Positions 10,751 through 55,995 of a stretch of DNA of 64,000 nucleotides are shown here, piece after piece. The translations under genes were made by a program, and so were the position numbers. Origin of the DNA: a virus; UHGV virus genome UHGV-1378817, one strand, 5' to 3'. The notes beneath the pieces were generated by a model. It had not been told where the DNA came from. It saw only the letters and a list, made by a program, of their open reading frames with translations, and searched no databases. Position 1 is the first letter of the stretch, and each line of letters begins with the position of its first letter.

Positions 10751-10827
10751 TGGTCTCCACGGAGTGATTCGAACACTCGACCTCCTGATCCCAAATCAGG
10801 CGCTCTACCAAGCTGAGCTACGCGGAG
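10751..10827 (-). tRNA. tRNA-Pro (anticodon UGG)
   Basis: Cloverleaf read by hand: 7-bp acceptor, D arm GCTC/GAGC, anticodon arm CCTGA-TTTGGGA-TCAGG, T loop TTCGAAT, encoded CCA. Confidence 0.8.
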
Positions 10828-10838
10828 TATTTATTATT

Positions 10839-10913
10839 TGGTGGCCCTGGGTGGAATTGAACCACCGTCTGGCGATTATGAGTCGCTTGCTTGAACCTTC
10901 CAGCTACAGGGCC
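10839..10913 (-). tRNA. tRNA-Met or Ile2 (anticodon CAU)
   Basis: Acceptor GGCCCTG/CAGGGCC, anticodon arm GCGA-CTCATAA-TCGC, T loop TTCAATT, encoded CCA. Confidence 0.7.
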
Positions 10914-10914
10914 A

Positions 10915-10990
10915 TGGTGCTGATAGCAGGACTCGAACCTGCAACCTATTGATTACAAATCAATTGCACTACCAATTGTGCTACATCAGC
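10915..10990 (-). tRNA. tRNA-Thr (anticodon UGU)
   Basis: Acceptor GCTGATG, D arm GCAC/GTGC, anticodon arm ATTGA-TTTGTAA-TCAAT, T loop TTCGAGT, CCA. Confidence 0.75.
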
Positions 10991-10995
10991 AAAAA

Positions 10996-11094
10996 GGTGC
11001 TAGGTGATGGAATCGAACCACCTATGTATTCAACGACTACCTCGTCTATTTTCAGGATTAAAAATCCTCGCCCTTGCCAAAGGGCTTACCTAGC
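10996..11094 (-). tRNA. atypical long tRNA-like element (~99 nt; anticodon loop reads UUU with 4-bp stem; long extra arm)
   Basis: Acceptor GCTAGGT/ACCTAGC and canonical T arm GGTGG-TTCGATT-CCATC are clear; anticodon arm and a 30-nt variable region are non-canonical; 3' end ACC not CCA. Confidence 0.35.
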
Positions 11095-11192
11095 TCAGTA
11101 TGTTGACCATGTTGCTAGTCGGCGATGACGACTGTAACATTTGATAATCCGGTTCTGCTTCCGGCTTTCGCTTAATTACAAGGTCAACAATA

Positions 11193-11283
11193 TGGCTGAG
11201 GGTAATGGAATCGAACCATCATCGAGTCATCCTCAACGGGACGGTTTTCAAGACCGCTTGAGCACCATTGCTCCCTACCCTCA
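11193..11283 (-). tRNA. tRNA-Ser (anticodon UGA), type II
   Basis: Acceptor TGAGGGT/ACCCTCA, 3-bp D stem, anticodon arm GCGGT-CTTGAAA-ACCGT, long variable arm, T loop TTCGATT, CCA. Confidence 0.75.
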
Positions 11284-11397
11284 TTTATAAACAATACTGA
11301 TAATGACACTGATTTTCGAGCAGTTAGTGACTAGTATAAACGACGATAAATATCAATGCCATTATCTGTATGATTTATGCATTTAAAACTATAAATT

Positions 11398-11484
11398 TGG
11401 TGGGGAGTGGTGGAGTCGAACCACCCGAGTCGCAATGACAATAGATTTACAGTCTACACCGCTACCTCTACGGGATAACTCCCC
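11398..11484 (-). tRNA. tRNA-Tyr (anticodon GUA), type II
   Basis: Acceptor GGGGAGT/ACTCCCC, anticodon arm GTAGA-CTGTAAA-TCTAT, variable arm, T loop TTCGACT, CCA. Confidence 0.75.
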
Positions 11485-11488
11485 AATT

Positions 11489-11563
11489 TGGCACCCCGTA
11501 CTGGACTCGAACCAGTGTCAACGGCTTAGAAGGCCGCTGCTTTATCCACTAAGCTAACAGGGC
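11489..11563 (-). tRNA. tRNA-Arg (anticodon UCU)
   Basis: Acceptor GCCCTGT/ACGGGGT (two G-U pairs), D arm GCTT/AAGC, anticodon arm GCGGC-CTTCTAA-GCCGT, T arm ACTGG-TTCGAGT-CCAGT, CCA. Confidence 0.7.
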
Positions 11564-41837: not shown

Positions 41838-41873
41838 TTGTGTATTGTTGTTTTCAACAAGAGGGGGTCATTT

Positions 41874-42113
41874 ATGTACAAGTCATTTTCAATCTACTCA
41901 AGACAGGCGAAACACTACACAGAGATCCTGATCACTCAGAAAAAATCTGTGGAAGGTGAGTGGGAATATCACCATAAAATGTTGCGTCCAGACTGGGTTT
42001 TTGATAGACTTATTGCTATGATCCCTCTCGGAGAAGTATACCCTCTGACAGCCCATCGCGATGCTTGGGATTTAATTGATTACATAGATTCATTTAAGGA
42101 GCCTAGATTATGA
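41874..42113 (+). CDS. hypothetical protein
   Basis: Start set to ATG 41874 with AGAGGGGG SD. Confidence 0.4.
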   Translation: MYKSFSIYSRQAKHYTEILITQKKSVEGEWEYHHKMLRPDWVFDRLIAMIPLGEVYPLTAHRDAWDLIDYIDSFKEPRL

Positions 42114-42508
42114 AGATTGAGATTACTAAAGAAGGTAATAAAGTGTCCGGCAACTATGCAACAGTAATTCGGGATTTAATGTTTGAAGCCACCAAGATCG
42201 GTACATCTAAAGTTGGTCAAACTGTTAGTGTGAAAAGTAATATCGCCACAGGAGAGAAGGTATTCATTGTGGTCAAAGGGCAGGATCCCGTGGAAGGAAC
42301 AGTGGGCCGAGGTGGCTACCTGTGCATTTCTGAAGAGCCGCGTATGTTAGTGGCTGACGCTACTATGGGTGGGAAACGTGTGTGCGAGGCGGATGAGGTA
42401 ATGATTATCCAACCTGTTGATCCAGATGACCCAGCAACTTGGGTGGTAGGAAATGAAATCTTCTCTTTAGAAGAGTTATCCTTCCCAGCACCGCGCTCTG
42501 TTCAGTAA
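42110..42508 (+). CDS. hypothetical protein
   Basis: 132 aa; ATGA overlap with previous gene. Confidence 0.4.
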   Translation: MKIEITKEGNKVSGNYATVIRDLMFEATKIGTSKVGQTVSVKSNIATGEKVFIVVKGQDPVEGTVGRGGYLCISEEPRMLVADATMGGKRVCEADEVMIIQPVDPDDPATWVVGNEIFSLEELSFPAPRSVQ

Positions 42509-42545
42509 TAATTTATCTTACCAGGGACGGTAGGTAGGAGGTAGC

Positions 42546-42779
42546 ATGAAAGTTAAATTTCTTACAGATTTAGGGTACCCTTCCTTGGTTGACTGTGTTG
42601 GTAAAATTGTGGAAGCAAAACGGCTATCTGCAAACGAGAATGTTGTCCTGGTTAAAGGGAAGGATTTACTAGCTGCAGGTGCAGAGTCTGGCAGGATCTC
42701 TCCTGATTATATGTATTACCTATCTTTAAGTAATCTGCCAGAGCGAGGCGGTAAAGGCCTTGAAGTTGTGGAGGAGTGA
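42546..42779 (+). CDS. small protein, paralog family A (MKVK...G.DL[IL]AAGA...VEE)
   Basis: Shares N-terminal MKVKFL, central KGKDLLAAGAESG and C-terminal EVVEE with 46201 and 46418 ORFs. Confidence 0.45.
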   Translation: MKVKFLTDLGYPSLVDCVGKIVEAKRLSANENVVLVKGKDLLAAGAESGRISPDYMYYLSLSNLPERGGKGLEVVEE

Positions 42780-42784
42780 CAGGT

Positions 42785-43309
42785 ATGCTTCTGATTAACT
42801 GGGAAGACCTCTATGGGGACAAAGACCCTGTTGCGTTTGTTGATCGTAGGTGGAGATACACTGAAGAACAACTGGCGGCAAAAAATTTAACTGCAAAACG
42901 CAGAAAGATCATCCAGTGCAAGTACAAATACGCACAGTTTGCTGCAAAAGTGTCTCCACAAATCGAGAGCTTTGTGCTTAAATTGTATGACGAGTACCTC
43001 AAATTCCAATTGGATTTTGTGCAGGTGTACCGTGCACAGGTACGACCAGATACCAACATATGTAGATGGAAGGTTGTTTGTGAAGGTAAAGATTTGCCGC
43101 TCAGCTTGACAATTGAGTGGCGTTATGGGTATCATGAGTGTGGTCTGTATGATATTTGGGATGTCATTGTAGATCCTGCTAAGCATCTGAACACAGAGGA
43201 GCTGGAATATATCAATAAGGTTATTCTCGATATGTTTTTCAGCTACACACATGAAAACTCTGAGAAAGAACGGGATAATTTTCTTGACACCCTCAGCGAC
43301 CATTTGTAG
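42785..43309 (+). CDS. hypothetical protein
   Basis: Start at ATG 42785 with GGAGGAG SD; 174 aa. Confidence 0.45.
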   Translation: MLLINWEDLYGDKDPVAFVDRRWRYTEEQLAAKNLTAKRRKIIQCKYKYAQFAAKVSPQIESFVLKLYDEYLKFQLDFVQVYRAQVRPDTNICRWKVVCEGKDLPLSLTIEWRYGYHECGLYDIWDVIVDPAKHLNTEELEYINKVILDMFFSYTHENSEKERDNFLDTLSDHL

Positions 43310-43339
43310 TATACAATTTAACCTACAAAGGGAGGACCA

Positions 43340-43567
43340 ATGAGTATAAATGTTGTGCTAATAGGTTACCTGGTAATGTCCGTTATAACAGCGGTATTCT
43401 TGACAGGTGTATGCATCGTGTCCAGACGAAGGGTGAAGTTTGATGATTTTATCACCATCATCACTGCTGCACCTTTTTGGCCTGTTGTTATCTTCATCGT
43501 AATAATGTGCCTAGTTGATTACTACAAGAATATCAGGAAGGAGAGTAGGGATGGAGGCCGCACCTAA
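43340..43567 (+). CDS. small membrane protein (two predicted TM helices)
   Basis: 75 aa; hydrophobic segments VVLIGYLVMSVITAVFLTGVCIV and ITAAPFWPVVIFIVIMCLV. Confidence 0.45.
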   Translation: MSINVVLIGYLVMSVITAVFLTGVCIVSRRRVKFDDFITIITAAPFWPVVIFIVIMCLVDYYKNIRKESRDGGRT

Positions 43568-43786
43568 AACTATCTATACTGTTCTTAAAGAGATTGCGTT
43601 CTACGCAGATCTTAGCCAGGCACCTTTATGGGAAAAGAGCATGTATTTAAAATGGTGCGTTAATTTAGGGAGACCTTCCAGTGTTTCAAGCCATGTTTAT
43701 TGAGATGCTATCTGGGATATTGTTACTGGTAGCCATCTTAGGTGGTGCAGTTCTGATGTATAACTATCTTGAAAAAGGAGACAGCA

Positions 43787-43972
43787 ATGGTAAAAAATAA
43801 ATCTTTAGAGCAGGCTGAAAACCTTCTCCACGAGCTGGTAAAGGAGTGGAAAGTTGAATACTCAGATTTTAATGCACGAGAGGGTGAAGATTATTGGCCT
43901 ACGGAGCGCTCAGAGGGCGAATGGTATCAAGATTTTATAGAGTGGTTATATCAGACGTGCGATGAGGGGTGA
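43787..43972 (+). CDS. hypothetical protein
   Basis: ATG 43787 with AAGGAG SD (track start is upstream TTG). Confidence 0.35.
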   Translation: MVKNKSLEQAENLLHELVKEWKVEYSDFNAREGEDYWPTERSEGEWYQDFIEWLYQTCDEG

Positions 43973-43974
43973 CG

Positions 43975-44439
43975 ATGTTTGTTAAATATGTAAAAACGTG
44001 CCTCAACAGTCTTGGCAGAGAGCATTGGTACACCTTGCTTGAAAAAGGGGAAATTTTAACAAAATCTGGAAAGATAACTTTGATACCTCTTGATAGTAAA
44101 GGTAAAGACCCGTCACGACTTGTTATAGATGATTACGTTACAGGTGTGACGTTCGAGGTCTCTGTGGAGAGGTTAATACGCAGAGCTGGCGGCCCTTATG
44201 ACCGAAGAGAGTATGTTTTCGATTCCGTTACAGAGATGGGGGAGCATCCGTCTTTAATGTTCAGGATGGTAATCAGAGATATGAGGTCATCTATAGATAG
44301 GATCGTAAAGGACATTAAGGAACCTTTTAGAGTAAAAGTTAAGAAGTTTTTCGATTCTAAGATTAACATACTCGCCGTTGCACTAGGTGTAGTTCAACTT
44401 CTGTTAATTTTGCACTATTTTGAACTACTATTTAAGTAG
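43975..44439 (+). CDS. hypothetical protein
   Basis: ATG 43975 with GAGGGG SD; C-terminal hydrophobic segment. Confidence 0.4.
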   Translation: MFVKYVKTCLNSLGREHWYTLLEKGEILTKSGKITLIPLDSKGKDPSRLVIDDYVTGVTFEVSVERLIRRAGGPYDRREYVFDSVTEMGEHPSLMFRMVIRDMRSSIDRIVKDIKEPFRVKVKKFFDSKINILAVALGVVQLLLILHYFELLFK

Positions 44440-44501
44440 TAGTTGAGATATGGCACAAAGGATGTGCCATAGTGAAATAAACTAAGAAAGAGGTAGAGAG
44501 A

Positions 44502-44849
44502 ATGCCAAAGATTAAAACGTTATTACTGTGGGTAGCTGTTTTAGCTTTTATAGGGTACTGGACTTGGGAAACTGAATTAAAAGATATCGGATATACCAGT
44601 CTTGAGAGCAAGGCGTGCATTGGCATAACCGATGCGTTCAGGCAAAATGCTATGGATCACGAATGTGTTGATGCAGATATAGATGAGAAACTGTCTAAGG
44701 ACAAAGATTTTTACCATGGGCATGCTTTACTTGATAGTGGTGACACTGTAGAGTTCTGGTCGTGGTTTCGTGAAGATGGAACAATAAAAACAGCAGTAAA
44801 GATCTCTAACAAAGAGTTAATGCTGTTGCAGCAAAAGGAGGCTCAATGA
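44502..44849 (+). CDS. membrane-anchored hypothetical protein
   Basis: N-terminal TM (LLLWVAVLAFIGYW); 115 aa. Confidence 0.4.
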   Translation: MPKIKTLLLWVAVLAFIGYWTWETELKDIGYTSLESKACIGITDAFRQNAMDHECVDADIDEKLSKDKDFYHGHALLDSGDTVEFWSWFREDGTIKTAVKISNKELMLLQQKEAQ

Positions 44850-45133
44850 TCTGGATATCCTATGCTGATGGCACCATGCTGTATACTGCAGGTACCAGAT
44901 ATGAAGTTCAGGAGAACGATAAAAAATTTATCGTAAAAACATTTGACAAGGACGACAACCTTTTGCTAGAATTGACTTACAAGGTTGGAGAGGTATCCAA
45001 TATCCAATTGGATTGTGGTCATAAAGATAATCCACTCAAAAAACCTGGAATAGGCAAGGCTTCAGAAGAACGTTTGTCTCGTATTGCAGAAAGCGTTTCT
45101 ACACAAAAATCTAAGAAGGGGACTAGAAAATGA
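44846..45133 (+). CDS. hypothetical protein
   Basis: 95 aa; ATGA overlap. Confidence 0.4.
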   Translation: MIWISYADGTMLYTAGTRYEVQENDKKFIVKTFDKDDNLLLELTYKVGEVSNIQLDCGHKDNPLKKPGIGKASEERLSRIAESVSTQKSKKGTRK

Positions 45134-45324
45134 AAAACTTACGTTTTAACACTTATTACTACAACACATTAAATGATTTGTACTATATTGTTCGAAGTAA
45201 AAGTCCTGAAACAGTCCTATTCTGCCGTGAACCCTTCAAAGGGGAGGAAGTAGAGTCTGAGATGAATGTTAGCCAAATCACCTCTTTGTTGCTCTCAGGC
45301 GCAATGGAAGAAGTAATATTCTAA
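45130..45324 (+). CDS. hypothetical protein
   Basis: 64 aa; ATGA overlap. Confidence 0.35.
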   Translation: MKNLRFNTYYYNTLNDLYYIVRSKSPETVLFCREPFKGEEVESEMNVSQITSLLLSGAMEEVIF

Positions 45325-45342
45325 ACCAGGCGGGAGGGTTTT

Positions 45343-45528
45343 ATGAAGCACTATTGCCTGTCTGGTAGAATGGGTGCAGATTGTGATTGGGTTTTCTTAA
45401 AACTTGTCAGCATTCGAGAGTTCATCCCAGAGGAAGAGCAAGAAAGTGAGCTGATGTCATGGATCAACCATTACGGTAACACTTTTCGACATGTTAAGGT
45501 AGAAGAGTTGCCAAGCGAGGCTGATTGA
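45343..45528 (+). CDS. hypothetical protein
   Basis: 61 aa ORF. Confidence 0.35.
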   Translation: MKHYCLSGRMGADCDWVFLKLVSIREFIPEEEQESELMSWINHYGNTFRHVKVEELPSEAD

Positions 45529-45530
45529 CT

Positions 45531-45620
45531 ATGATTGCATCAATATTAACGTTTATGGGTGGCGTGGCATTCGGATTCATTGTTTGCCTGTTTATAGTGA
45601 TTATGTCTATGCGAGGCTGA
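45531..45620 (+). CDS. small hydrophobic peptide (29 aa, single TM)
   Basis: MIASILTFMGGVAFGFIVCLFIVIMSMRG; starts 3 nt after previous stop; below ORF-track cutoff. Confidence 0.3.
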   Translation: MIASILTFMGGVAFGFIVCLFIVIMSMRG

Positions 45621-45623
45621 ATT

Positions 45624-45920
45624 ATGAAACTTTTTGAGTGGTTTAAAAAGTTTAAATATAAAGCTGTAGCCATCGTGCCGTGGTCAATTCAGTGGGTTGA
45701 TGAAGGTGGTCTACCAATACCTGGTGACAAAGATACTGGGTACTGGATTATGATGGAGAACGGGTTTGGAAAGCGAAAGTATACGTGCACAAACTCTACT
45801 CGATCTGCACTTAATAGAGTGCCTGGTTACAAACTTATGGTTGTGTGGAAAATGTCAGGCGTCCCTCCAGCCAATGCTCAATTTCTTACTGACAATCCTA
45901 CCACGGTAGAGGGAGATTGA
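45624..45920 (+). CDS. hypothetical protein
   Basis: 98 aa ORF. Confidence 0.4.
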   Translation: MKLFEWFKKFKYKAVAIVPWSIQWVDEGGLPIPGDKDTGYWIMMENGFGKRKYTCTNSTRSALNRVPGYKLMVVWKMSGVPPANAQFLTDNPTTVEGD

Positions 45921-46204
45921 TAATGAAAAAGATTAACAGTAGTGAAGTCGAGTTTAAACTTGTCGGAAAAGGCACTTACTGGGAAGTTCGTCAAAAGGTA
46001 TATTTGTTCGGTCTTATTCCTTACTGGTCTAAATTCTACTGGGGAGCTAACGAGTGGGGAAGATACGCCACCAAATCAATGGCACTTATTGGTATAGCAG
46101 AGTACATTGCAGCCAGAGATAGGGTTGGAGACACTTATTACTATACTGCGGACGATATTCGTAACAGTGTTTACGTCCCACAACCACCTGATGGAGACCG
46201 TTGA
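45917..46204 (+). CDS. hypothetical protein
   Basis: 95 aa; ATGA overlap. Confidence 0.4.
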   Translation: MIMKKINSSEVEFKLVGKGTYWEVRQKVYLFGLIPYWSKFYWGANEWGRYATKSMALIGIAEYIAARDRVGDTYYYTADDIRNSVYVPQPPDGDR

Positions 46205-46428
46205 TGAAAGTTAAAGTTTTAGATTCAAGCTTCTATATTGGTCAGGAGCCCTTAGTGGGGAAAGTGTTTACTGCTGTCCCTAACGAAGATTACCCCGACC
46301 TTTTAAAAATAAAAGGGGCAGATCTTATTGCCGCTGGTGCATCTCAGGAATGCTTTGACAGTCAGTGGACCTACAACTTTGCCCTAGGTGAGGATGTAGA
46401 GATAGTGGAGGACAATCATGAAGGTTAA
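46201..46428 (+). CDS. small protein, paralog family A
   Basis: MMKVKVL...KGADLIAAGASQE...VEIVED; paralog of 42546 and 46418. Confidence 0.45.
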   Translation: MMKVKVLDSSFYIGQEPLVGKVFTAVPNEDYPDLLKIKGADLIAAGASQECFDSQWTYNFALGEDVEIVEDNHEG

Positions 46429-46672
46429 AATTCTTGATTCTAACGTCTACTTGGGACAATCCTTCCTGAAGGGAAAAGTCGTTCCTGCGGTATACTTTGA
46501 AGGGTTGCCGTGGGATGATCCTGTTCGGCAACATCACAGTTATGTAGGCCACAACGTAGTGTTTATCTTAGGAGCAGACCTGATCACCGCTGGTGCACCT
46601 GAATATTATTTCGGGGAAGAGTCCTATTATGCCTTTGGGGTAGGGTCAGATGCAGATATTGTAGAGCTGTGA
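46418..46672 (+). CDS. small protein, paralog family A
   Basis: MKVKIL...LGADLITAGAPEY...DIVEL. Confidence 0.45.
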   Translation: MKVKILDSNVYLGQSFLKGKVVPAVYFEGLPWDDPVRQHHSYVGHNVVFILGADLITAGAPEYYFGEESYYAFGVGSDADIVEL

Positions 46673-46684
46673 TGGGTAACCGTT

Positions 46685-47083
46685 GTGAAAAATAAACTGT
46701 TCAAAGTTACAATGAAAATTCGCGGAGCTTGGAGCGTAAAGCAAGGGCGTATTCCAGAATTTGAGAAAGACTTCTACGTAGTCTCCACCTCGGAGGAGGC
46801 TGCATGCTGGCAAGCTGGCTATGCCTATGCAAGAACCTGGTACGAAGGATACCAGACTGGGGGCTATGACGGAGAAATTATCAGCAAGAGTGTAGAAGAA
46901 ATTAATGTGTTGACAAGTGAAAAAGTTTTTGTTATAGTGCATCCAGATTCCAGAGTGAAGCATTACTGGAATGCCAGAACAAAAACTTGGACACCGTTTG
47001 CAGATTCTGCTACGCCACTTTTAAACCAGAAAGCTCTTGACTCTGCCCCAAGTTATGGGGTTGTTGAAGAAAAGCTAAACTGA
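46685..47083 (+). CDS. hypothetical protein, paralog family B
   Basis: Paralogous to 48894-49289 (FVIVHPDSRVKHYWNARTKTWTP vs FVMRHPHSNIAYYWDVLNNEWTP); GTG start. Confidence 0.45.
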   Translation: MKNKLFKVTMKIRGAWSVKQGRIPEFEKDFYVVSTSEEAACWQAGYAYARTWYEGYQTGGYDGEIISKSVEEINVLTSEKVFVIVHPDSRVKHYWNARTKTWTPFADSATPLLNQKALDSAPSYGVVEEKLN

Positions 47084-47100
47084 AACAGTGAGGTGCCACT

Positions 47101-47391
47101 ATGATGGATTTAGTTCTGAATATTGATAACGCAGGAGAGCTTAAAGACGATGGTGTAACAAGTATGGACAAACCCTGCTCTGCCGAGGTTGACTCAAAAT
47201 GGACCTACAAGTTTGACGGAGAGATCTTCGCAAATGATGAGAAGGTTGTAGATGCTGCAGCCATTTTGAACGCTTTAGGGTACGACCCTGTGAATTCTTT
47301 GATCAAGGATCCTGTTGAGTTTGCAGAGTATGTTCGAAAAATGGCAGATCTTGCTGTAGATATTTTAAGAACTATCGACAACAAGCTATAA
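47101..47391 (+). CDS. hypothetical protein
   Basis: 96 aa acidic ORF. Confidence 0.4.
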   Translation: MMDLVLNIDNAGELKDDGVTSMDKPCSAEVDSKWTYKFDGEIFANDEKVVDAAAILNALGYDPVNSLIKDPVEFAEYVRKMADLAVDILRTIDNKL

Positions 47392-47396
47392 AACTG

Positions 47397-47425
47397 TTGA
47401 CACAACGCTTCGGCTATAGTATTAT
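47397..47425 (+). promoter_or_regulatory. sigma70-like promoter upstream of hpf-like gene
   Basis: TTGACA, 17-nt spacer, TATTAT. Confidence 0.6.
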
Positions 47426-47474
47426 TGTTTTCAAAGAGAGATAGTTATTCCCTCTTCCTTAAAAGGAACACGTT

Positions 47475-47795
47475 ATGCAAATTGAAATCACTGGCAACAA
47501 TGTAGAAATCACAGAAGGTATGGTATCTTTTATTTCCCGCAAAATGTCCAAGCTGGAGCGTTTACATCCCTCTGTTAACTATGCACGTGTGAGTGTAAAA
47601 GTTGAAAATGATCACCAGGAAGTTATGGCGTTCATTTTTGACAATTCTGGAAAAGAAGTTATTGCCAAGGCTAAAGGCAGTGATGCTTACGAGGCAACTG
47701 ACCGTATGGTAGATGTTGCAGCACGTCAGCTGGCTAAATGCGGTGGAAAGAAAGGTAAGGGGAAAGGCAAAGTAAAGATTGACTTTGGAGAATGA
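47475..47795 (+). CDS. hpf: ribosome hibernation promoting factor / RaiA-like protein
   Basis: N-terminus MQIEITGNNVEITEGM...KLERL...VKVE close to E. coli HPF/RaiA as recalled; Lys/Gly-rich C-terminal tail. Confidence 0.7.
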   Translation: MQIEITGNNVEITEGMVSFISRKMSKLERLHPSVNYARVSVKVENDHQEVMAFIFDNSGKEVIAKAKGSDAYEATDRMVDVAARQLAKCGGKKGKGKGKVKIDFGE

Positions 47796-47804
47796 GGTGC
47801 TACA

Positions 47805-47906
47805 ATGGGTGTGATTAAGAAATTAGTCCCAAATGTAGAGATTGCATGCTTTGAAATTATGTTTGCAATCGCAGTTGTAGTTAATGTGTTAGGTTACGGC
47901 TATTAA
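47805..47906 (+). CDS. small hydrophobic peptide (33 aa)
   Basis: MGVIKKLVPNVEIACFEIMFAIAVVVNVLGYGY; GAGGTG SD; below ORF-track cutoff. Confidence 0.3.
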   Translation: MGVIKKLVPNVEIACFEIMFAIAVVVNVLGYGY

Positions 47907-47932
47907 TATCAAATAATTGAGGAGACCTCTAA

Positions 47933-48202
47933 ATGAAAATTAAATTATTCAAAACTGAGCTGGCAGACAAAAACTGTGGACTGGTTGAAGGCATGATTGT
48001 TGAAGCACAACCAGTGGACTATATGAAGGTGGTTCGTGATGCCCTGGGTGAAGGTTTTGATCTGATGGAGCCAGCTCTGCGAGAAGATGTTATCGAGATG
48101 GCTAAAAAGCACACACCTGAAGGTTTGGTGGTGTTTGTTGCACCGGGTAACGGAGAAGAGTTGATTGTAACTCCTGATGTGTATGAGATTGTAGAGGAAT
48201 AA
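47933..48202 (+). CDS. small protein, paralog family A-like (C-terminal EIVEE)
   Basis: MKIKLFK... N-terminus and ...YEIVEE C-terminus. Confidence 0.4.
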   Translation: MKIKLFKTELADKNCGLVEGMIVEAQPVDYMKVVRDALGEGFDLMEPALREDVIEMAKKHTPEGLVVFVAPGNGEELIVTPDVYEIVEE

Positions 48203-48293
48203 TCCTACTTGGATTAGCATACTTCCTCGATAAGGAAGATCTGTAATTATTTGTGGGAAAGGAATCCCAATCTCTTACCAGAGGTGATACTAT

Positions 48294-48557
48294 ATGATTG
48301 TTTATTTTAAAACTTCAGGTGGATACCCTGATTCTCAAAGTTTGATCGGAAAAACGTGCACAGCATACTCACCTCTTGATGAGGAGGTAAGCGATATTCT
48401 ACGAAATATGTATCGGATTGACCCACAAGAAGCCTTTGATCAAAACCTTGTATTTGTCAAGGGCTCAGACATGAAGTCTTTGGGAGCATTCCCTGAAGCA
48501 GATGATGATGCCGTTTATTCGTTCATGACCCCTTTTGAAGCTATGGTTGTTGGGTGA
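48294..48557 (+). CDS. small protein, family A-like
   Basis: 87 aa; VFVKGSDMKSLGAFPE resembles the family A central motif. Confidence 0.4.
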   Translation: MIVYFKTSGGYPDSQSLIGKTCTAYSPLDEEVSDILRNMYRIDPQEAFDQNLVFVKGSDMKSLGAFPEADDDAVYSFMTPFEAMVVG

Positions 48558-48561
48558 TAAT

Positions 48562-48894
48562 ATGAAAGTACGCTTTATTGGTGAAACAATTCCTGTGCAT
48601 CTCCGGTCTCCTGAGGATTCTGCAGATCTTGCATCTCAAAAGGCGAGAGGTTATGATAAGAAAGTAACCTCAACCGATGTAGTGCTTGAGGCTACCAGTC
48701 TACCTGACCCTGCTGCATTCTTTAATCATTATGGGTACTATTTCAGCAATCTGATGAATATCGGTGAGCTTGTGTTTATCAGTGGTGGAGAGATTGTTAG
48801 CAAGCTTGGCGGCGATCCGGATGTCTTTCATGAAACCTGTCCTTTTGCATTTGTGGTAGGTTCAGATGTGGAAGTTATTGAGGAGGTGCGGTAA
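48562..48894 (+). CDS. hypothetical protein (C-terminal VEVIEE)
   Basis: Start at ATG 48562 (MKVRFIGE...); track 5' extension overlaps upstream gene. Confidence 0.4.
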   Translation: MKVRFIGETIPVHLRSPEDSADLASQKARGYDKKVTSTDVVLEATSLPDPAAFFNHYGYYFSNLMNIGELVFISGGEIVSKLGGDPDVFHETCPFAFVVGSDVEVIEEVR

Positions 48895-49289
48895 TGGTAA
48901 GCCTATACCGTGTTGAGTATAGCTCAGATACTGTATACAACGTAAGAAGCAAAGATCGCAGCGACAGAGTGCAAGAAATGTATGTTCTTGCCGACAGTCC
49001 GTTATCTGCAGCGTTCAAGGCAGGGGCTCTTGCATCTCGTTGGAAATTCGAAGGTGGATCTTTCTATGAAGAAACCCTTGAAGATTCTGTTGTTATTTCT
49101 TCTGTAGAGGTTTCAGATGACTACGAAGGGAAAAAGTTCGTAATGCGGCACCCACACAGCAACATTGCGTACTACTGGGATGTTCTGAACAACGAGTGGA
49201 CCCCAGATCTTCAGAAGGCTACTGTGCTAACACCGTTTTTGGCAGATAAGTTCCCACCAGAAGGTAATTTATCCGCACTGTTTCAGTAA
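48894..49289 (+). CDS. hypothetical protein, paralog family B
   Basis: Paralog of 46685-47083; GAGGAGGTG SD. Confidence 0.45.
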   Translation: MVSLYRVEYSSDTVYNVRSKDRSDRVQEMYVLADSPLSAAFKAGALASRWKFEGGSFYEETLEDSVVISSVEVSDDYEGKKFVMRHPHSNIAYYWDVLNNEWTPDLQKATVLTPFLADKFPPEGNLSALFQ

Positions 49290-49308
49290 TTTTCTTGCAC
49301 ACAGGTGT

Positions 49309-49337
49309 TGACAACGCCAACCCTGTGTGAAATAATA
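49309..49337 (+). promoter_or_regulatory. sigma70-like promoter
   Basis: TTGACA, 17-nt spacer, AATAAT; embedded in inverted repeat CACAGG...CCTGTG. Confidence 0.45.
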
Positions 49338-49365
49338 CCTTCATCTTAACAAGACAGGAGACCGA

Positions 49366-49626
49366 TTGATGAAGATTAAATTGAAAAACCTTGAAACGGC
49401 AGAGATTCAGGACGGTGTTGATTTCCGTTCTAAAGATGGTGACATCTTAGAGGTAAATATTCCAACCTACGAGCTGATTAAAGGTTTTGGCAACGTCCCA
49501 GAGGAAGGTATCGCAGACGTTCTTCTAATGTTAATCGTTAGTGGGACAGTGTTCTTGGGTGAAGGTGAGAACGCTATTGCAATCCCAAGCCATTTTTATG
49601 AAGTAGTTGACGAAGAGGTGCTGTAA
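49366..49626 (+). CDS. small protein, family A-like
   Basis: MMKIKLKNL... N-terminus and ...YEVVDEEVL C-terminus. Confidence 0.4.
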   Translation: MMKIKLKNLETAEIQDGVDFRSKDGDILEVNIPTYELIKGFGNVPEEGIADVLLMLIVSGTVFLGEGENAIAIPSHFYEVVDEEVL

Positions 49627-49977
49627 ATGAAAGTAGAAATTACCGGTTTTGATATTAATATGGTTCCGGAAGATATTTTAGCTAAATTGCCGGAAGGTTT
49701 TGGTAACGGTGTTGTGGTGGATGCTGTTCCTCCTACCAAAGACATTCTGCTGCAGTATGGTGTAGCAGAGGAAGATGTCGATAAAGTTCTTACAATGATG
49801 GCAATCGATCGTGTTGTCGTTGTTAAAGGTCTCGATAATTTTGAGAGTGATCCCCTGATTATTCGTGGAGATGACTACAAAATCATCGATAATGAAGGCC
49901 AAGAGTTCTATGAGCCTTGTGCAGAAGATATTCTTAACTTATTACTGGAAGCAGGTACCGAAGAGGAGGACGAATAA
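49627..49977 (+). CDS. hypothetical acidic protein
   Basis: 116 aa, MKVEITG N-terminus, acidic tail. Confidence 0.4.
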   Translation: MKVEITGFDINMVPEDILAKLPEGFGNGVVVDAVPPTKDILLQYGVAEEDVDKVLTMMAIDRVVVVKGLDNFESDPLIIRGDDYKIIDNEGQEFYEPCAEDILNLLLEAGTEEEDE

Positions 49978-50306
49978 TGAAGATTGACCCGTTACTGAAG
50001 GCTCGTGCAGAAAAAGCGTACACCATTAAGCTGACCAACCTGGTTCCTACTTGTCATCCAGATGTAGGTTGGCCTGAAGGTCTGGTAGAGGGGACTGTAA
50101 CAGCTGCATACCTCCCTAACATCAAATACCTCATGGAGATCTTAGAGATGGATGAGGAAACTGCAGAACAGTTCCAGTTGGACATGAAACAAAGTGGGAC
50201 TCTGGTTATTCACGGGTGGTACAATACTAAAGATGCAGAAGACCCTCTTGTAACTTCTAATCTGGCATATGAAATCTTAGGACCTTTGAACCTGGGGGAA
50301 GACTAA
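49977..50306 (+). CDS. hypothetical protein
   Basis: 109 aa; ATGA overlap. Confidence 0.4.
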   Translation: MKIDPLLKARAEKAYTIKLTNLVPTCHPDVGWPEGLVEGTVTAAYLPNIKYLMEILEMDEETAEQFQLDMKQSGTLVIHGWYNTKDAEDPLVTSNLAYEILGPLNLGED

Positions 50307-50593
50307 TGAAAGATCTGGTTAAGATTAAGATTAAAGATACCAACGGCGAACTCAGCCATTTTGGAATTAATGATGGTGACGAGCTGATCGCACACCTACC
50401 TACCAAGGAAGTTGTAAGCAAAGCAGTTGCCGGAGAAGAAGATGCAATGCAGGCTGCAGGTGTGGATGAAAACTATGTAGCCATGTGTATGTGCCGAGAT
50501 CAGGTTGTTCTGTATAAAGCGTATCGACCAAACGGAGCCACGGAGTGGCTTGTATTCCGACCTGAAGGATATGAAATCCTAGAGGCACTATGA
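50306..50593 (+). CDS. hypothetical protein
   Basis: 95 aa; ATGA overlap. Confidence 0.4.
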   Translation: MKDLVKIKIKDTNGELSHFGINDGDELIAHLPTKEVVSKAVAGEEDAMQAAGVDENYVAMCMCRDQVVLYKAYRPNGATEWLVFRPEGYEILEAL

Positions 50594-50682
50594 TAAATCT
50601 TGCCAAGGTTGCAATGGTCCTGCTAATTATTTGCTGGTCAGTAACCTTAACACTGTGTCTTGTATTTCAGTAAGGTGCTTAT

Positions 50683-51101: not shown

Positions 51102-51353
51102 ATGACGAAGATTGACTTGAATGCTGGCGACCATGTTGTTGTCAAATGCATTGGAGATTATCTTGGATTCACAATCGGCAATACTTACGAAGCGGTAGTG
51201 GCGAAGGTTTATCATGATAAAGTCCTCAGTCTTGTATTTGACTGCGATGATGATGGGGATGACCGATACGTCTGTGAGGTGCTGGCACGAGACGATAGTG
51301 AAGACCAGAAATTCCTGGTTATTGAACTGAACGGTATTTTTGTAGAACGTTAA
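51102..51353 (+). CDS. hypothetical protein
   Basis: ATG 51102 with AAGGAG SD (track start is further upstream). Confidence 0.4.
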   Translation: MTKIDLNAGDHVVVKCIGDYLGFTIGNTYEAVVAKVYHDKVLSLVFDCDDDGDDRYVCEVLARDDSEDQKFLVIELNGIFVER

Positions 51354-52076: not shown

Positions 52077-52376
52077 ATGTCTACAAAGGCGGCTAAATAC
52101 TCCTACATGCCATCAACCTCTGCAGAGGTAGACTTTAGTTTCGATGTGTTTCCACTGTTTGAGGCGGTTCTGGCATACCCAACAATACTATCTACTCCTG
52201 AATCACTTGTGCCTGTTAAGTTGCAGAACGCTATGCATTCTATGCACTACAACAATAAATGTAGGCACAGATGGTGTCAGGACGAGGAAAAAGATTTGGA
52301 CAGTTTGAGAGATTTTGACAGTCACCTTTTGACACCTTTCAGCTACTCCAACCTTGATAAGCCCTCATGGGTATAG
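52077..52376 (+). CDS. hypothetical protein
   Basis: ATG 52077 with GAGGTGG SD. Confidence 0.4.
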   Translation: MSTKAAKYSYMPSTSAEVDFSFDVFPLFEAVLAYPTILSTPESLVPVKLQNAMHSMHYNNKCRHRWCQDEEKDLDSLRDFDSHLLTPFSYSNLDKPSWV

Positions 52377-52531
52377 CAAAATATCAAATTTAAGACACCT
52401 AGGACGCTCTGTGGCGTCCTTTTCTTTATCTGGTGCACGATTGCATACCTTGGACAGGTAATCTCATTATAGAGCGCTTTAGAAAGAATTTGACTGTTTT
52501 CCTAAACCACCAACATCTTGAGGTATCATTT

Positions 52532-52753
52532 ATGAAAATTGTTCTATACGACGATAACGATATTGCTCTCAGTACTGTATATTTTGAAGATGATGATCTG
52601 CCAGATTTTCTACGTGTCTCCACATTTGCTGCAGAATACGGTGTGAGCCGTCAGGCAATGCATAAGTACCGAGAGTATCAGAATTGCTCATGGGCTGAGA
52701 CCTTTATGCACTTTATCCAACGTAAGCAGGCTCTGGACCGCAAAAAGCTTTAA
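52532..52753 (+). CDS. hypothetical protein
   Basis: ATG 52532 with GAGGT SD (track start is far upstream). Confidence 0.4.
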   Translation: MKIVLYDDNDIALSTVYFEDDDLPDFLRVSTFAAEYGVSRQAMHKYREYQNCSWAETFMHFIQRKQALDRKKL

Positions 52754-53334: not shown

Positions 53335-53550
53335 ATGAAGATAGAAATATTTGGTGGGGCTGACAACACTCGTGGCCTGATTTACCTTGAATTTGATGAA
53401 TCATACCTGCCAGAGGTGTTAAATATAGACTCTGTTGCTGAGGCTTTGGGAGTAAACCCTAAAGAACTCCACTCTTGTGCTGAGATCGATGGTTGGGAAG
53501 AGACCATGAACATTGATTTCAGTGAAGTAGAGGACGAACCGCTGGACTGA
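53335..53550 (+). CDS. hypothetical acidic protein
   Basis: 71 aa; MKIEIFGG N-terminus; last plus-strand gene before non-coding region. Confidence 0.4.
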   Translation: MKIEIFGGADNTRGLIYLEFDESYLPEVLNIDSVAEALGVNPKELHSCAEIDGWEETMNIDFSEVEDEPLD

Positions 53551-53679
53551 CACACAATTAGCTGCCCGGCTAAAGTGCTGGAAGCGCACCTATAACACAT
53601 CTTTCAACTAAATTTCCTACCACCACAATCACTTACCTCCAACACATGACTGTTTGCTTGTTTAGTGAGCAGTCATGCC

Positions 53680-53707
53680 TTGACATTCTTGCCTATCCTG
53701 ATAAAAT
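53680..53707 (+). promoter_or_regulatory. sigma70-like promoter firing into ORF-poor region
   Basis: TTGACA, 16-nt spacer, TAAAAT; no convincing ORF downstream. Confidence 0.4.
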
Positions 53708-55021
53708 TAAGTTCTTCTCTTTTCTTTTACCGAGTAATTCGGGTTTTCTGTTCTCTTCGGTTTGAAGGGGTATGGAGATACACCTGAGTGAACAGGGTGA
53801 ACAACCGAACCATTGGCTATGGCATTAGCATGGCGAAGCGGACGGGTGACGAAAGAGGGGCCGGAGGACACCAGTCACTGCCATATGATATATGGGTGAT
53901 AACCTGAAGAGTCTGAATAAGTGTTTAAGTACCAGTCAGAGGAAAAGGTGAATGGTAGCCGAAGGGGGAGGGGGGTTTCTTGTATCTTTAATTTGTATAT
54001 TATGTATACACTTGTAAACCAATATCATCTAGATCTGTTTACCACACAAAGTGGATAGAGACAAATATTACCTATTAAACTTGAATTATTTATAGAAAAT
54101 ACCACAACACCACTTAAGTCTTTGATTTTACACACAAATCTTACAGATATTCAACCTCCATATTTAACATACCTGTAACATATTCCATACTCTACCTGCC
54201 TGATCAATTTCCCCAACTACATCCCTCATATTTCCCCTGTCTGTACTACCCTGCCCCACCGGGAGTCCCGTCATATCTGGCTTTCCAGCAAATATCACAC
54301 CCACAAATATCATGCCTGAAGAGGGTTTCATCCCATAATACCTGCCTTGCCTGAAGAGCGCTTCATACACCACGTAAATTTTTTAATTGACCTCCCCTGC
54401 CCCGCCGGAGAGGTTGGCTTTTCCCACACAGACCTGAAGAGTCAGCCAGAAATATCTGAATAGGCCCAGTTCTACCACGATTTTGACCTGACCTACAGGA
54501 GCGCTGCCAGGCGGACGAAATGGGAATACTTCTCATTCTTATAACAATTCTCAAATATCGAGGCAGTGAGGCAAATTAATAGGCCAGGCCGTTCACACAG
54601 TGGCACAACATTTGCAACCTATCTTGTGGGGGTGAATGAGAATACCTATCATTGTGAGAACCATTATCATTACGGGCAATTTAACATAATACCCATTATG
54701 CGCACCACTGGTGATACATACAGGGATTGATAACACGAGTTACAGTTTACGCATATAACAATCATATTTCTTACTATTTGTGTGGGATATAGTTAGCAGC
54801 CGATAGATTAGATATTGACCTGTGGACTTCCAACCGTCTAGACGTCTAAGCGCCCACACAACAAGGCTTATACATACATTACTGAATGTAAACAGGGCCG
54901 CAAAAATGCTACCATACCAGTTTGTAAATTTTCATGCAGCACTTGACAAAGAGGAGGAAAACTTGTCTGACACAATGTCACACAATATGACACAATAACG
55001 GCTGTTACCATTCCATATCTC

Positions 55022-55077
55022 ACTGTTTACGCATAGACTGTTTACGCCTGGATAGTTTACACCTTGACAGTTTACAC
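55022..55077. repeat. four direct iteron-like repeats with exact 15-bp periodicity (ACTGTTTACGC x2, ATAGTTTACAC, ACAGTTTACAC)
   Basis: Repeat starts at 55022, 55037, 55052, 55067; further copies of the core at 54742-54752 and 55493-55502. Confidence 0.7.
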
Positions 55078-55150
55078 AGATATGATAAGCCATGACATTC
55101 GTTTGCATGAAAACAATTAGCAAGTTAACAATTAACAAGTTAATAATATA

Positions 55151-55303
55151 TGACATAATATAAAAGCAGGGCAACTATTAGAAGATCTATAGTTGCCTTG
55201 CTTGTTATGTCATGATTAACTAAATACAAGGCAACTATGATCTGATTAATAGTTTGCAGACAAACTATCACGGGGGTGATGGTTACTGCTTTTATATTAT
55301 GTC
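55151..55303. repeat. ~150-bp element bounded by perfect 18-bp inverted repeats, containing internal GGCAACTAT palindromes
   Basis: Left arm GACATAATATAAAAGCAG (55152-55169), right arm CTGCTTTTATATTATGTC (55286-55303); inside, GGCAACTAT-N10-ATAGTTGCC. Confidence 0.6.
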
Positions 55304-55946
55304 GCGACTCCGTCGCGCCATGCCATTCGTTTGCATAGTTGCCTTATTGTTACAGATAAAATAATTGTATTGTTAATTATTTCTTATCTTTCTATTAGTC
55401 ATCTAATGATTCCGGTTAGTATAGTAACGTACAGTAAACATTAGACGACTAAATATTTCTATGTTTATGATAACCTATCGTGACAATTCCGGACTGTTTA
55501 CGAAAAATGTTGACACCTGAGCTGATTTATGTTATGCAATTTAAACGAATAATTATTTTATGCAGGTATTGACTATTCCGTTATTCTATGGTTGGAATAA
55601 ATACTTAGCAAGCTATAGAATGGTGAGCGTACGTAAATTCTGAGATTTGTCGGCTATAGTTATACTCGATTTTTCACGTAGAACACGCTTTTTGGTTTGT
55701 GTAAGTGTATGACTTATAAAGATTTTTAGTTGTTGACAAGATATTGAAGATGTGCATCAGGTTAAATTTTGTGCAATAGCTGCATTACGTGCAATTTTGG
55801 AAGGAAAACTGGTAAAAATAGCACCGATACCACACAATGAAAGGTTATGCAATAGCTATTTTATATGTATATTTGTACAGTGTGCAGGATTGATGGCTCG
55901 TCAATTATTCCACTTGCCAGGTAGGGCCGTTTATGGTAGGGGAAGA

Positions 55947-55977
55947 GCAGACAAAAAGAAAGGGGCCTAAGCCCCTT
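55947..55977 (-). terminator. intrinsic terminator closing the minus-strand gene block
   Basis: AGGGGC-ctaa-GCCCCT hairpin followed on minus strand by TCTTTTTGT, about 20 nt after stop of 55996-56415. Confidence 0.6.
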
Positions 55978-55995
55978 GATAATTCAGTTAAAAAA

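Follow-up and report, generated by a model that had tools for sequence, protein, structure and literature searches.

Two families of small acidic proteins with predicted SH3-like barrels in the accessory gene block of an rV5-like phage

Ten small paralogs and two family B genes

We analysed ten genes for small acidic proteins that lie between positions 42546 and 50593 of the virus genome UHGV-1378817 (64,000 nt; this whole stretch of DNA is called the window below), together with the two genes of a third family, family B, that are interspersed with them. Escherichia phage rV5_ev168 and more than 100 other Vequintavirus genomes match the region 42000-50600 along its entire length with 98% identity, i.e. 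the window belongs to a Vequintavirus, a lytic, rV5-like myophage of E. coli. The genes are part of a single block of about 40 small genes at 41.5-53.6 kb, which are all on the + strand and whose products are nearly all labelled “hypothetical” or “Phage protein” in GenBank. NrdG, PhoH-like, ClpP-like, and Dam-like genes are found upstream of the block, and it terminates at a divergent region that is poor in open reading frames (ORFs), where the GC skew changes its sign. Genes are designated by their start positions.

The gene models were based on the ORF list and on the annotation of relatives, and the 41 products of the block were compared all-against-all. The original prediction, which was made from the sequence of the window, had named the ORFs at 42546, 46201, and 46418 as paralogs with common motifs, and these similarities proved to be significant far beyond chance. 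In BLASTP comparisons, 46204 matches 46418 with an E-value of 3e-15 and 42546 with an E-value of 1e-6, and all three proteins match PHROG 5009, a family of unassigned function, at 1e-32 to 1e-38 (8e-36 for 42546, 3e-38 for 46204, and 4e-32 for 46418). All ORFs that had been listed exist on the + strand, and two of the starts were shifted: the second ORF has a better start at ATG 46204 than at TTG 46201, and 49369 is an ATG start within ORF 49366. Likewise, 48562 is an ATG start within ORF 48535.

A hidden Markov model (HMM) of this core trio, built from 42546, 46204, 46418, and their homologs from a search of 5.8 billion proteins, was compared with all 725 six-frame ORFs of the window. It retrieved 48294 and 48562 with E-values of 1.1e-5 and 1.2e-5, respectively, while the next best ORF had a value of 2.3. 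Leave-one-out profiles recover all five members, with E-values ranging from 4.7e-5 to 8e-20. By these sequence comparisons, family A consists of five paralogs, i.e. 42546, 46204, 46418, 48294, and 48562. Their common pattern is MK[VI]K.., G.x[VI]..A, a variable insertion, [VL]V.[IV].G.[DE][LI]...G[AG], Y.F, and E[IV][IV]E. Five residues (Y11, G38, L41, G45, and Y57 in the numbering of 46204) are conserved to at least 90% in 29 diverse members including 42546 and 46204, and G38 and G45 are invariant in all five paralogs of the window.

Paralog 1 (42546-42779; 77 aa, isoelectric point (pI) 5.4; leave-one-out E-value 1.8e-8) is the copy that is nearest to homologs of temperate phages, e.g. mEp021_40, and tblastn searches with it yield identities of 41-49% in mEp021, mEp013, and mEp554. 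Paralog 2 (46204-46428; 74 aa, pI 4.1) is the shortest one and has no loop insertion. Its end overlaps by 11 nt with paralog 3 (46418-46672; 84 aa, pI 4.7), which has an insertion of about 14 residues between the predicted strands beta2 and beta3. Paralog 4 (48294-48557; 87 aa, pI 4.1) has a helical-looking loop insertion and matches PHROG 13920 and, weakly, PHROG 5009 (1.2e-4). Paralog 5 (48562-48894; 110 aa, pI 4.7) has the longest insertion and is linked to 46418 by a BLASTP E-value of 5e-4.

In accordance with the prediction of small paralogs without recognisable function in a lytic phage, sequence searches of Pfam, NCBIfam, and PDB gave no match for any family A member tested. The Pfam search had no match at E <= 1 for the ten paralogs and none at E <= 0.1 for 29 family A members. 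One PDB hit, the designed protein 8frf (E 0.007), was judged to be a chance match.

Four further ORFs, 47933, 48294, 48562, and 49366, had been proposed to be relatives of the core trio. This was borne out for 48294 and 48562 as members of family A. 47933 and 49369 do begin with MK[IV]K and end in an acidic stretch, as had been described, and they were assigned to a second family, group 2. As judged from sequence, group 2 comprises 47933, 49369, 49627, 50306, and probably 49977, its weakest member. The leave-one-out E-values are 3.6e-8 for 49627, 6.4e-5 for 50306, 6.7e-4 for 49369, and 1.5e-3 for 47933; 49977 was not recovered in this way (E 65). It is tied to 49627 and 50306 by a jackhmmer search of the local gene set, which converges on group 2, and by Smith-Waterman comparisons with shuffled sequences (p = 2.3e-3 and 7.7e-3, respectively). 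The shuffle p-value is below 0.01 for seven of the ten group 2 pairs, compared with about 2% of 220 control pairs.

The first group 2 gene, 47933-48202 (+ strand, as for all genes of the block), encodes a protein of 89 aa with a pI of 4.4 and a predicted SH3-like barrel with a three-helix beta2-beta3 insertion. Several GenBank records, e.g. pangalan_77, label its orthologs “sigma 54 modulation factor”; there is no S30AE/PF02482 match, and the label seems to have been carried over by mistake from the gene next to it, 47475-47795. The other four group 2 genes are arranged back-to-back, starting with 49369-49626 (85 aa, pI 4.2; shuffle p-values of 1e-3 to 5e-3 to 50306, 49627, and 47933). It is followed by 49627-49977 (116 aa, pI 4.05, net charge -21), which has an acidic C-terminal extension and was found only in Vequintavirus, with at least 90% identity in 119 records, and then by 49977-50306 (109 aa, pI 4.5) and 50306-50593 (95 aa, pI 4.7; p = 8.5e-5 to 49627).

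Family B has two members, 46685-47083 (132 aa) and 48894-49289 (131 aa), the latter with a start that overlaps the stop of 48562. They match one another with a BLASTP E-value of 3e-10, both belong to PHROG 7379, and no known domain was matched in searches of Pfam, NCBIfam, and PDB. 48894 was found in 119 Vequintavirus records, with an identity of at least 95%, and nowhere else. Each family B gene is the third gene of a unit that two family A genes open, so that the order A, A, B is present twice, in cassette 1 (46204-46418-46685) and in cassette 2 (48294-48562-48894), which points to a segmental duplication. Cassette 2 is preceded by a gap of 91 nt at 48203-48293, which contains a hairpin, and followed by a gap of 79 nt, which contains a strong sigma-70-like promoter. 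The tandem arrangement that had been envisaged does not strictly hold: the ten genes are spread over 8 kb and are interspersed with others, including the gene for a ribosome hibernation factor.

To family A and group 2 as a single family of seven or ten members we found no support, and this grouping was rejected. Family A profiles, including a broad HMM of 129 sequences, had E-values of 2.8-5.2 for 47933 and 49369, hhalign gave probabilities of 2-4% for family A against group 2, and the shuffle p-value of the best pair across the two families was 0.06. None of the three approaches, i.e. profile-profile comparison, the 129-sequence HMM, and shuffle statistics, yielded a significant link.

Predicted fold, conservation, and distribution

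One member of each family was modelled with AlphaFold2. The model of 46204, based on a family alignment of 17 sequences, has a pLDDT of 90.9 and a pTM of 0.78, with strands at residues 2-5, 21-23, 33-37, 56-61, and 65-69; the conserved G.DLI.AGA motif forms a short helix (38-43). The model of 47933, based on an alignment of 18 group 2 sequences (pLDDT 86.5, pTM 0.63), has strands at 2-5, 22-27, 66-69, 76-79, and 84-88 in the same order as in 46204, and three helices at 30-60 between strands 2 and 3. Both models are small barrels of five antiparallel strands that can be superposed on solved SH3-like domains. Structure prediction, which had been suggested as a check for a shared fold, supports a shared fold class for 46204 and 47933. 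The insertions of 46418, 48294, and 48562 are all located at the same beta2-beta3 place, and the paralogs differ mainly by an insertion of about 0 to 45 residues in the loop of strands 2 and 3, the position of the n-Src loop of SH3 domains. The models thus support the view that both families are predicted SH3-like five-stranded barrels with a variable second loop, a statement about fold class that does not imply common descent, and that family A and group 2 are two sequence families with a common predicted fold class.

For comparison, we considered known SH3-like barrels, i.e. SH3 itself, the KOW domains of Spt5/NusG, PsaE, and the C-terminal domain of retroviral integrase. The sequence identities to the hits are mostly below 20%, with a maximum of 25%, and there is no Pfam match. 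Family A has the conserved short helix (G.DLI.AGA) where SH3 domains carry the distal hairpin, and group 2 differs by its 30-residue three-helix insertion. In addition, the proteins of both families are acidic, stand-alone, and phage-encoded. The likeness is one of fold class and not of family membership. A KOW motif, as defined by Pfam KOW and the KOW / NusG-Spt5 family, was found neither in the ten proteins nor in 29 family A members. In a Foldseek search of predicted viral structures, many small, uncharacterised proteins of phages were found to have the fold of family A, among them proteins of the T4-like phages Merlin, Sf20, and RB49.

All ten paralogs are acidic, with pI values of 4.05-5.4 and net charges from -1.5 to -21.5. 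Their orthologs in four other vequintaviruses are 81-100% identical, the dN/dS values of all ten genes range from about 0 to 0.24, and the reading frames are intact in every genome compared. Four genes were searched for in GenBank records (42546, 49627, 48894, and the 48562 type), and each is present in 119 Vequintavirus records; an identity of at least 90% holds for the three that were queried directly. At the level of sequence, the paralogs are old duplicates under purifying selection and not fast-evolving alleles. The original prediction of rapid divergence has accordingly to be revised: the divergence lies between the old paralogs. Of the marks of an arms race, a raised dN/dS was observed for none of the ten genes and presence/absence variation for none of the four that were searched for.

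In T4-like and T5-like genomes, several diverged copies of a small accessory gene are clustered in a non-structural region. The array of the window resembles these arrays of small early paralogs, a comparison that was made by fold hits only. With respect to the paralog arrays of large lytic phages, the copies described here are strongly conserved across the genus and not variable.

A few traces of exchange between copies were detected. The DNA sequences of 46204 and 46418 are 81% identical over 31 nt at the central GADLI.AGA motif. P0014, a protein of 70 residues from a 133-kb contig, is an exact-looking natural chimera composed of two halves, the N-terminal one from 46204 and the C-terminal one from 46418, and its join at the common GADLI.AGA motif is evidence of recombination between the tandem paralogs. 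46418 and its counterpart in SYGMH1 have an identity of 81% with saturated dS, which suggests an allele exchange at this sequence; it is the only one of the ten genes that looks like an exchanged allele.

Family A is widespread among phages. A HMMER search of 1.84 billion cluster representatives yielded 41 family A clusters at E <= 1e-3, mostly of 63-87 residues, with the consensus MKVKLLNDGGY.G...GKVV.A...I.G.DLI.AGA...F...Y.F..G.E.EVVEE; one of the representatives has two copies and one has three copies. A second, word-indexed search returned 80 proteins, many of them on contigs of 40-53 kb and in Morganella/Proteus genomes, and family A pattern scans of genome and viral collections found only 1 and 2 loci. 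Three long repeat proteins in the representative search (P0090, P0109, and P0113) were treated as spurious scores summed over multiple stretches. According to Pfam, P0109 has YDG and MBG domains, and P0113 has matches to four unrelated families, none of them with a stretch that passes alone. For P0097, which is 54% identical to 48562, a location was found on neither a GenBank phage nor an IMG/VR contig.

Family A is also present in temperate phages and prophages of Enterobacterales. In the temperate phage mEp021, the gene is flanked by Q and holin; in Morganella prophages, by RecT/YqaJ on one side and by NinX, Dam, and integrase on the other; and in a 42.5-kb phage, by a primase-polymerase and replication genes. 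These varied contexts, together with the multi-domain proteins, characterise family A as a free-standing accessory domain. Three tandem copies are present on a 48-kb IMG/VR contig (L017) and two copies in the 42.5-kb phage (L009), and arrays therefore recur independently in unrelated phages. mEp021_40 and the genes of Morganella/Proteus/Moellerella prophages (PHROG 5009 and relatives) are all annotated as hypothetical and belong to the same family as 42546, 46204, and 46418. They agree with these in length, begin with MKVKLL..GY, have the G.DLI.AGA helix and the Y.F strand, and end in E-V-V-E-E. The temperate relatives occur as one copy per phage, in genomes of about 40-55 kb, and occupy early or moron positions. 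In contrast, five copies are present in the window, three of them with loop insertions, and the family is coupled here to a family B gene that is specific to the genus. All occurrences of group 2 and family B that were found are on contigs or in records of vequintavirus size.

Host-specific requirement and interpretation

Transposon-insertion sequencing of phage Bas54 has been reported in the HIDEN-SEQ preprint (Humolli et al., bioRxiv 10.1101/2025.11.20.689424). From its locus tags, Bas54 is Escherichia phage MaxBurger (MZ501093). The identities of its products are 89% to 49369 and 96-100% to the other nine paralogs and to both family B proteins. The orthologs are bas54_0166 for 42546 and bas54_0152 for 48294 (100% each), bas54_0151 for 48562, bas54_0150 for 48894, and bas54_0157 for 46685 (99% each), and bas54_0153 for 47933. 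On E. coli K-12, all ten paralogs and the family B genes were classified as “non-essential” or “intermediate” (Humolli et al.).

The supplement of the preprint contains a resampling table in which K-12 is compared with the uropathogenic isolate CFE311, the sample being named in the header. The mean insertion counts in bas54_0152, bas54_0151, and bas54_0150 decrease from 142, 71, and 108 on K-12, respectively, to 0.0 on CFE311, and the log2 fold changes (log2FC) are -7.16 for 48294, -6.17 for 48562, and -6.77 for 48894, with adjusted p-values printed as 0.00000 (Humolli et al.). The orthologs of 48294-48562-48894 are thus specifically required on this host in a near-identical phage. For the family B gene of cassette 1 (46685, bas54_0157), the value is -2.14, again with an adjusted p-value printed as 0.00000 (Humolli et al.). 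The prediction of a host-interaction locus is supported experimentally by the depletion of the cassette 2 orthologs; the other family A genes and group 2 have no phenotype on CFE311, the one clinical strain covered by the data. In Extended Data Table 8 of the preprint (10.1101/2025.11.20.689424), the sheets for K-12 versus CFE303 and K-12 versus CFE311 are numerically identical.

The transposon lacks a terminator, as the authors point out, and they argue that polar effects are not widespread (Humolli et al.). The data for cassette 1 also speak against strong polarity, since its two A genes, which lie upstream, show no effect of insertions and the B gene downstream of them does.

Deletion mutants in the preprint were made for bas54_0063 and bas54_0140 only, and these genes were reported to be needed against a predicted defence system, DS-28 (Humolli et al.). 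bas54_0140 in particular was reported to be required, with a MoxR ATPase, against DS-28 of E. coli CFE311 (Humolli et al.). Its ortholog in the window is 52077-52376 (+ strand, 98% identical, no known domain), and the block thus contains at least one tested counter-defence gene. A second small counter-defence protein that was found by conditional essentiality is T4 nrdC.1, directed against Septu (Humolli et al.). Like cassette 2, bas54_0140 and T4 nrdC.1 are small, have no assigned fold family, are dispensable on K-12, and are required on a particular clinical isolate, and bas54_0140 is located in the same accessory block as the orthologs of cassette 2. In contrast, cassette 2 has no sequence relation to either of them, is known from transposon depletion alone, and has no matched host system.

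On the best reading of these results, both families consist of binding proteins that serve counter-defence or host takeover in a host-specific way. The paralogs would be made from the accessory gene block and would act as cytoplasmic binding proteins, in which the conserved barrel is the scaffold, and the variable beta2-beta3 loop together with the neighbouring RT-like loop forms the binding surface and sets the specificity. Each paralog may bind and neutralise a different host protein, either a component of a defence system or some other factor in which strains differ. Family A would work together with family B in the three-gene unit A, A, B, which was duplicated; the second unit, 48294-48562-48894, is needed for growth on the uropathogenic CFE311. 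For the full statement, i.e. small cytoplasmic binding proteins with a barrel scaffold and a variable loop, of which cassette 2 counters a factor specific for CFE311, most plausibly immunity, we see about an even chance. A more far-reaching version is offered only tentatively: family A may be a widespread “inhibitor scaffold” with a loop that is swapped or extended for retargeting and with copies arrayed against several defences, and cassette 2 may be a three-part inhibitor of the immunity of CFE311.

Several observations weigh against the interpretation as host-specific binding proteins. The sequences give no support to a homology of family A with group 2. bas54_0153, the ortholog of 47933, has a non-significant log2FC of -2.78 on CFE311, and the family A genes bas54_0158, bas54_0159, and bas54_0166 as well as the group 2 genes bas54_0146-0149 are unchanged on this host (Humolli et al.). 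The phenotype comes from one strain and from the supplementary table of one preprint, is unmentioned in its text, and is based on transposon insertions only; moreover, the headers of both resampling sheets name the 311 sample despite the CFE303 label. Polarity within 48294>48562>48894 could still play a role, so that perhaps only one of the three genes is needed, and the requirement may be due to something other than immunity. Lastly, the binding and the targets of the paralogs are what we infer, and early transcription was deduced from matches to a promoter consensus only.

Alternative explanations were also considered. The likeness of family A and group 2 might be convergent or trivial, and the two would then be unrelated families of small proteins that resemble one another through common MK starts, GAG codons serving as ribosome-binding sites, and the frequency of small beta-barrels at 70-110 residues. 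This would be in line with the missing sequence link and with the Foldseek matches of the family A fold to many unrelated small phage proteins. It also fits that 17 of the 41 ORFs of the block have an MK start, which is therefore weak evidence by itself, and that for eight of the ten paralogs the next gene begins at most 15 nt from the stop or overlaps it. Before 46418, 48894, 49627, and 49977, where the upstream sequence was read, the terminal GAG/GAA codons are the Shine-Dalgarno sequence of the next gene. We regard convergence as a serious possibility, albeit not the favoured one; an unrelated origin of the two families is quite possible and would leave the functional reading unchanged.

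A different view of the cassettes is that family B is the active factor and that the family A pairs are chaperones, adaptors, or inhibitors without a host target of their own. The repeated A, A, B order and the tight coupling of the genes, with starts overlapping stops, are compatible with this, as is the finding that only the B gene of cassette 1 matters on CFE311 (-2.14 for bas54_0157, compared with -0.30 for bas54_0158 and +0.98 for bas54_0159). However, family A is widespread without family B. The latter was detected in Vequintavirus only, and the family A loci of temperate phages and elsewhere lack it. No family B gene adjoins 42546 either, and insertions in the A genes of cassette 2 are depleted as strongly as those in the B gene, so that we consider this view unlikely. 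Somewhat less likely still are regulators of the KOW/Sm/L24 type that would bind nucleic acids or the ribosome and, with the hibernation factor encoded nearby, readjust translation or transcription of the host during infection, because the proteins are acidic and have no KOW signature. Least probable by far, and close to negligible, is the view that this gene-dense accessory region retains the ORFs as duplicates that are decaying or have no function. The paralogs are all dispensable or “intermediate” on K-12 and most have no phenotype on CFE311, as this would predict, but the low dN/dS values and intact frames, the occurrence of each of the four searched genes in 119 Vequintavirus records (at least 90% identity for the three queried directly), the confident structure predictions, and the three genes required on CFE311 all contradict it.

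The sequences as such are not new, as they are present in more than 100 public genomes, where they are labelled hypothetical. What appears to be undescribed in the available literature and libraries is the definition of the two families and of their predicted SH3-like barrel with its variable loop, the wide occurrence of family A among phages and its recurrent arrays, and the duplicated A-A-B cassette with its host-specific requirement. Phages of the rV5 type are used in, and have been proposed for, therapy against pathogenic E. coli, and about two thirds of their genes are dispensable on a laboratory strain, most of these without known function. Ten “hypothetical proteins” are here assigned to two defined families with a predicted fold, one of which, family A, is broad and missing from Pfam and NCBIfam, and public data tie one three-gene unit to growth on a clinical isolate. 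If this unit does counter a defence, it would represent a new family of inhibitors and a handle for finding the host system that is targeted, and it would help to predict which strains such phages can infect.

Promoters and neighbouring features

Two sigma-70-like promoters with 11 of 12 consensus positions, both found by a consensus scan only, are located in gaps of the block. The first, at 47397-47425 (+ strand; TTGACA, 17 nt, TATTAT), lies in the gap before the hibernation factor gene, and the sequence downstream of it recurs at 41842-41872. The second, at 49308-49336 (+ strand; TTGACA, 17 nt, AATAAT, with TG), lies in the 79-nt gap between cassette 2 and group 2, a position that fits the transposon data, since the requirement on CFE311 ends at 48894. 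A literature search found no transcriptome of a vequintavirus, and the timing of expression was read from the promoter-like sites only. A putative regulatory motif common to the gaps upstream of 48294 and of 50683, TAATTATTTG, was dropped, as it did not recur elsewhere.

The gene between the two cassettes, 47475-47795 (+ strand), encodes a homolog of the ribosome hibernation factor (S30AE/HPF; Pfam PF02482, E 4e-15) and is preceded by the near-consensus promoter described above. Its ortholog in Bas54 is dispensable on K-12 and on CFE311 (Humolli et al., 10.1101/2025.11.20.689424).

Downstream of the block, 53551-55995 is an ORF-poor stretch of about 2.4 kb between divergent gene blocks at the turning point of the GC skew. 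Its counterpart of about 2 kb in Bas54 tolerated zero transposon insertions (Humolli et al.), and the stretch could be an origin or control region. An Rfam scan of 41-57 kb, including this stretch, had no match.

The composition of the block differs between relatives in places. Seven small ORFs at 43975-45920 (+ strand) are apparently absent from Bas54 (MaxBurger), where the genes matching 43787 and 45923 are only about 90 nt apart, i.e. there is a presence/absence difference within an otherwise conserved block. The genes 52433-52753 and 53335-53550 (+ strand) are a further pair of paralogs (BLASTP E 1e-5), in which residues 34-91 of the first protein resemble the whole second protein. For 52433, the four other vequintaviruses compared have at most a partial counterpart (16-18% coverage), and this end of the block therefore varies.

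Among the records matching 42000-50600 are 18 GenBank records named “Campylobacter phage”, with Campylobacter as the host (C. jejuni for 16 of them). Two of these, among the matches listed, are about 98% identical, and the naming or host of the records looks doubtful. Outside of the block, a cluster of seven tRNA genes is present at 10751-11563 (- strand), in which a 99-nt call at 10996-11094 has a four-base anticodon and no assigned amino acid. Within the block, the ORF 51102-51353 (+ strand) encodes an acidic protein of 83 residues (MTKIDLNAGDHVVVK...) that, as judged by eye, has the look of a small beta-barrel.

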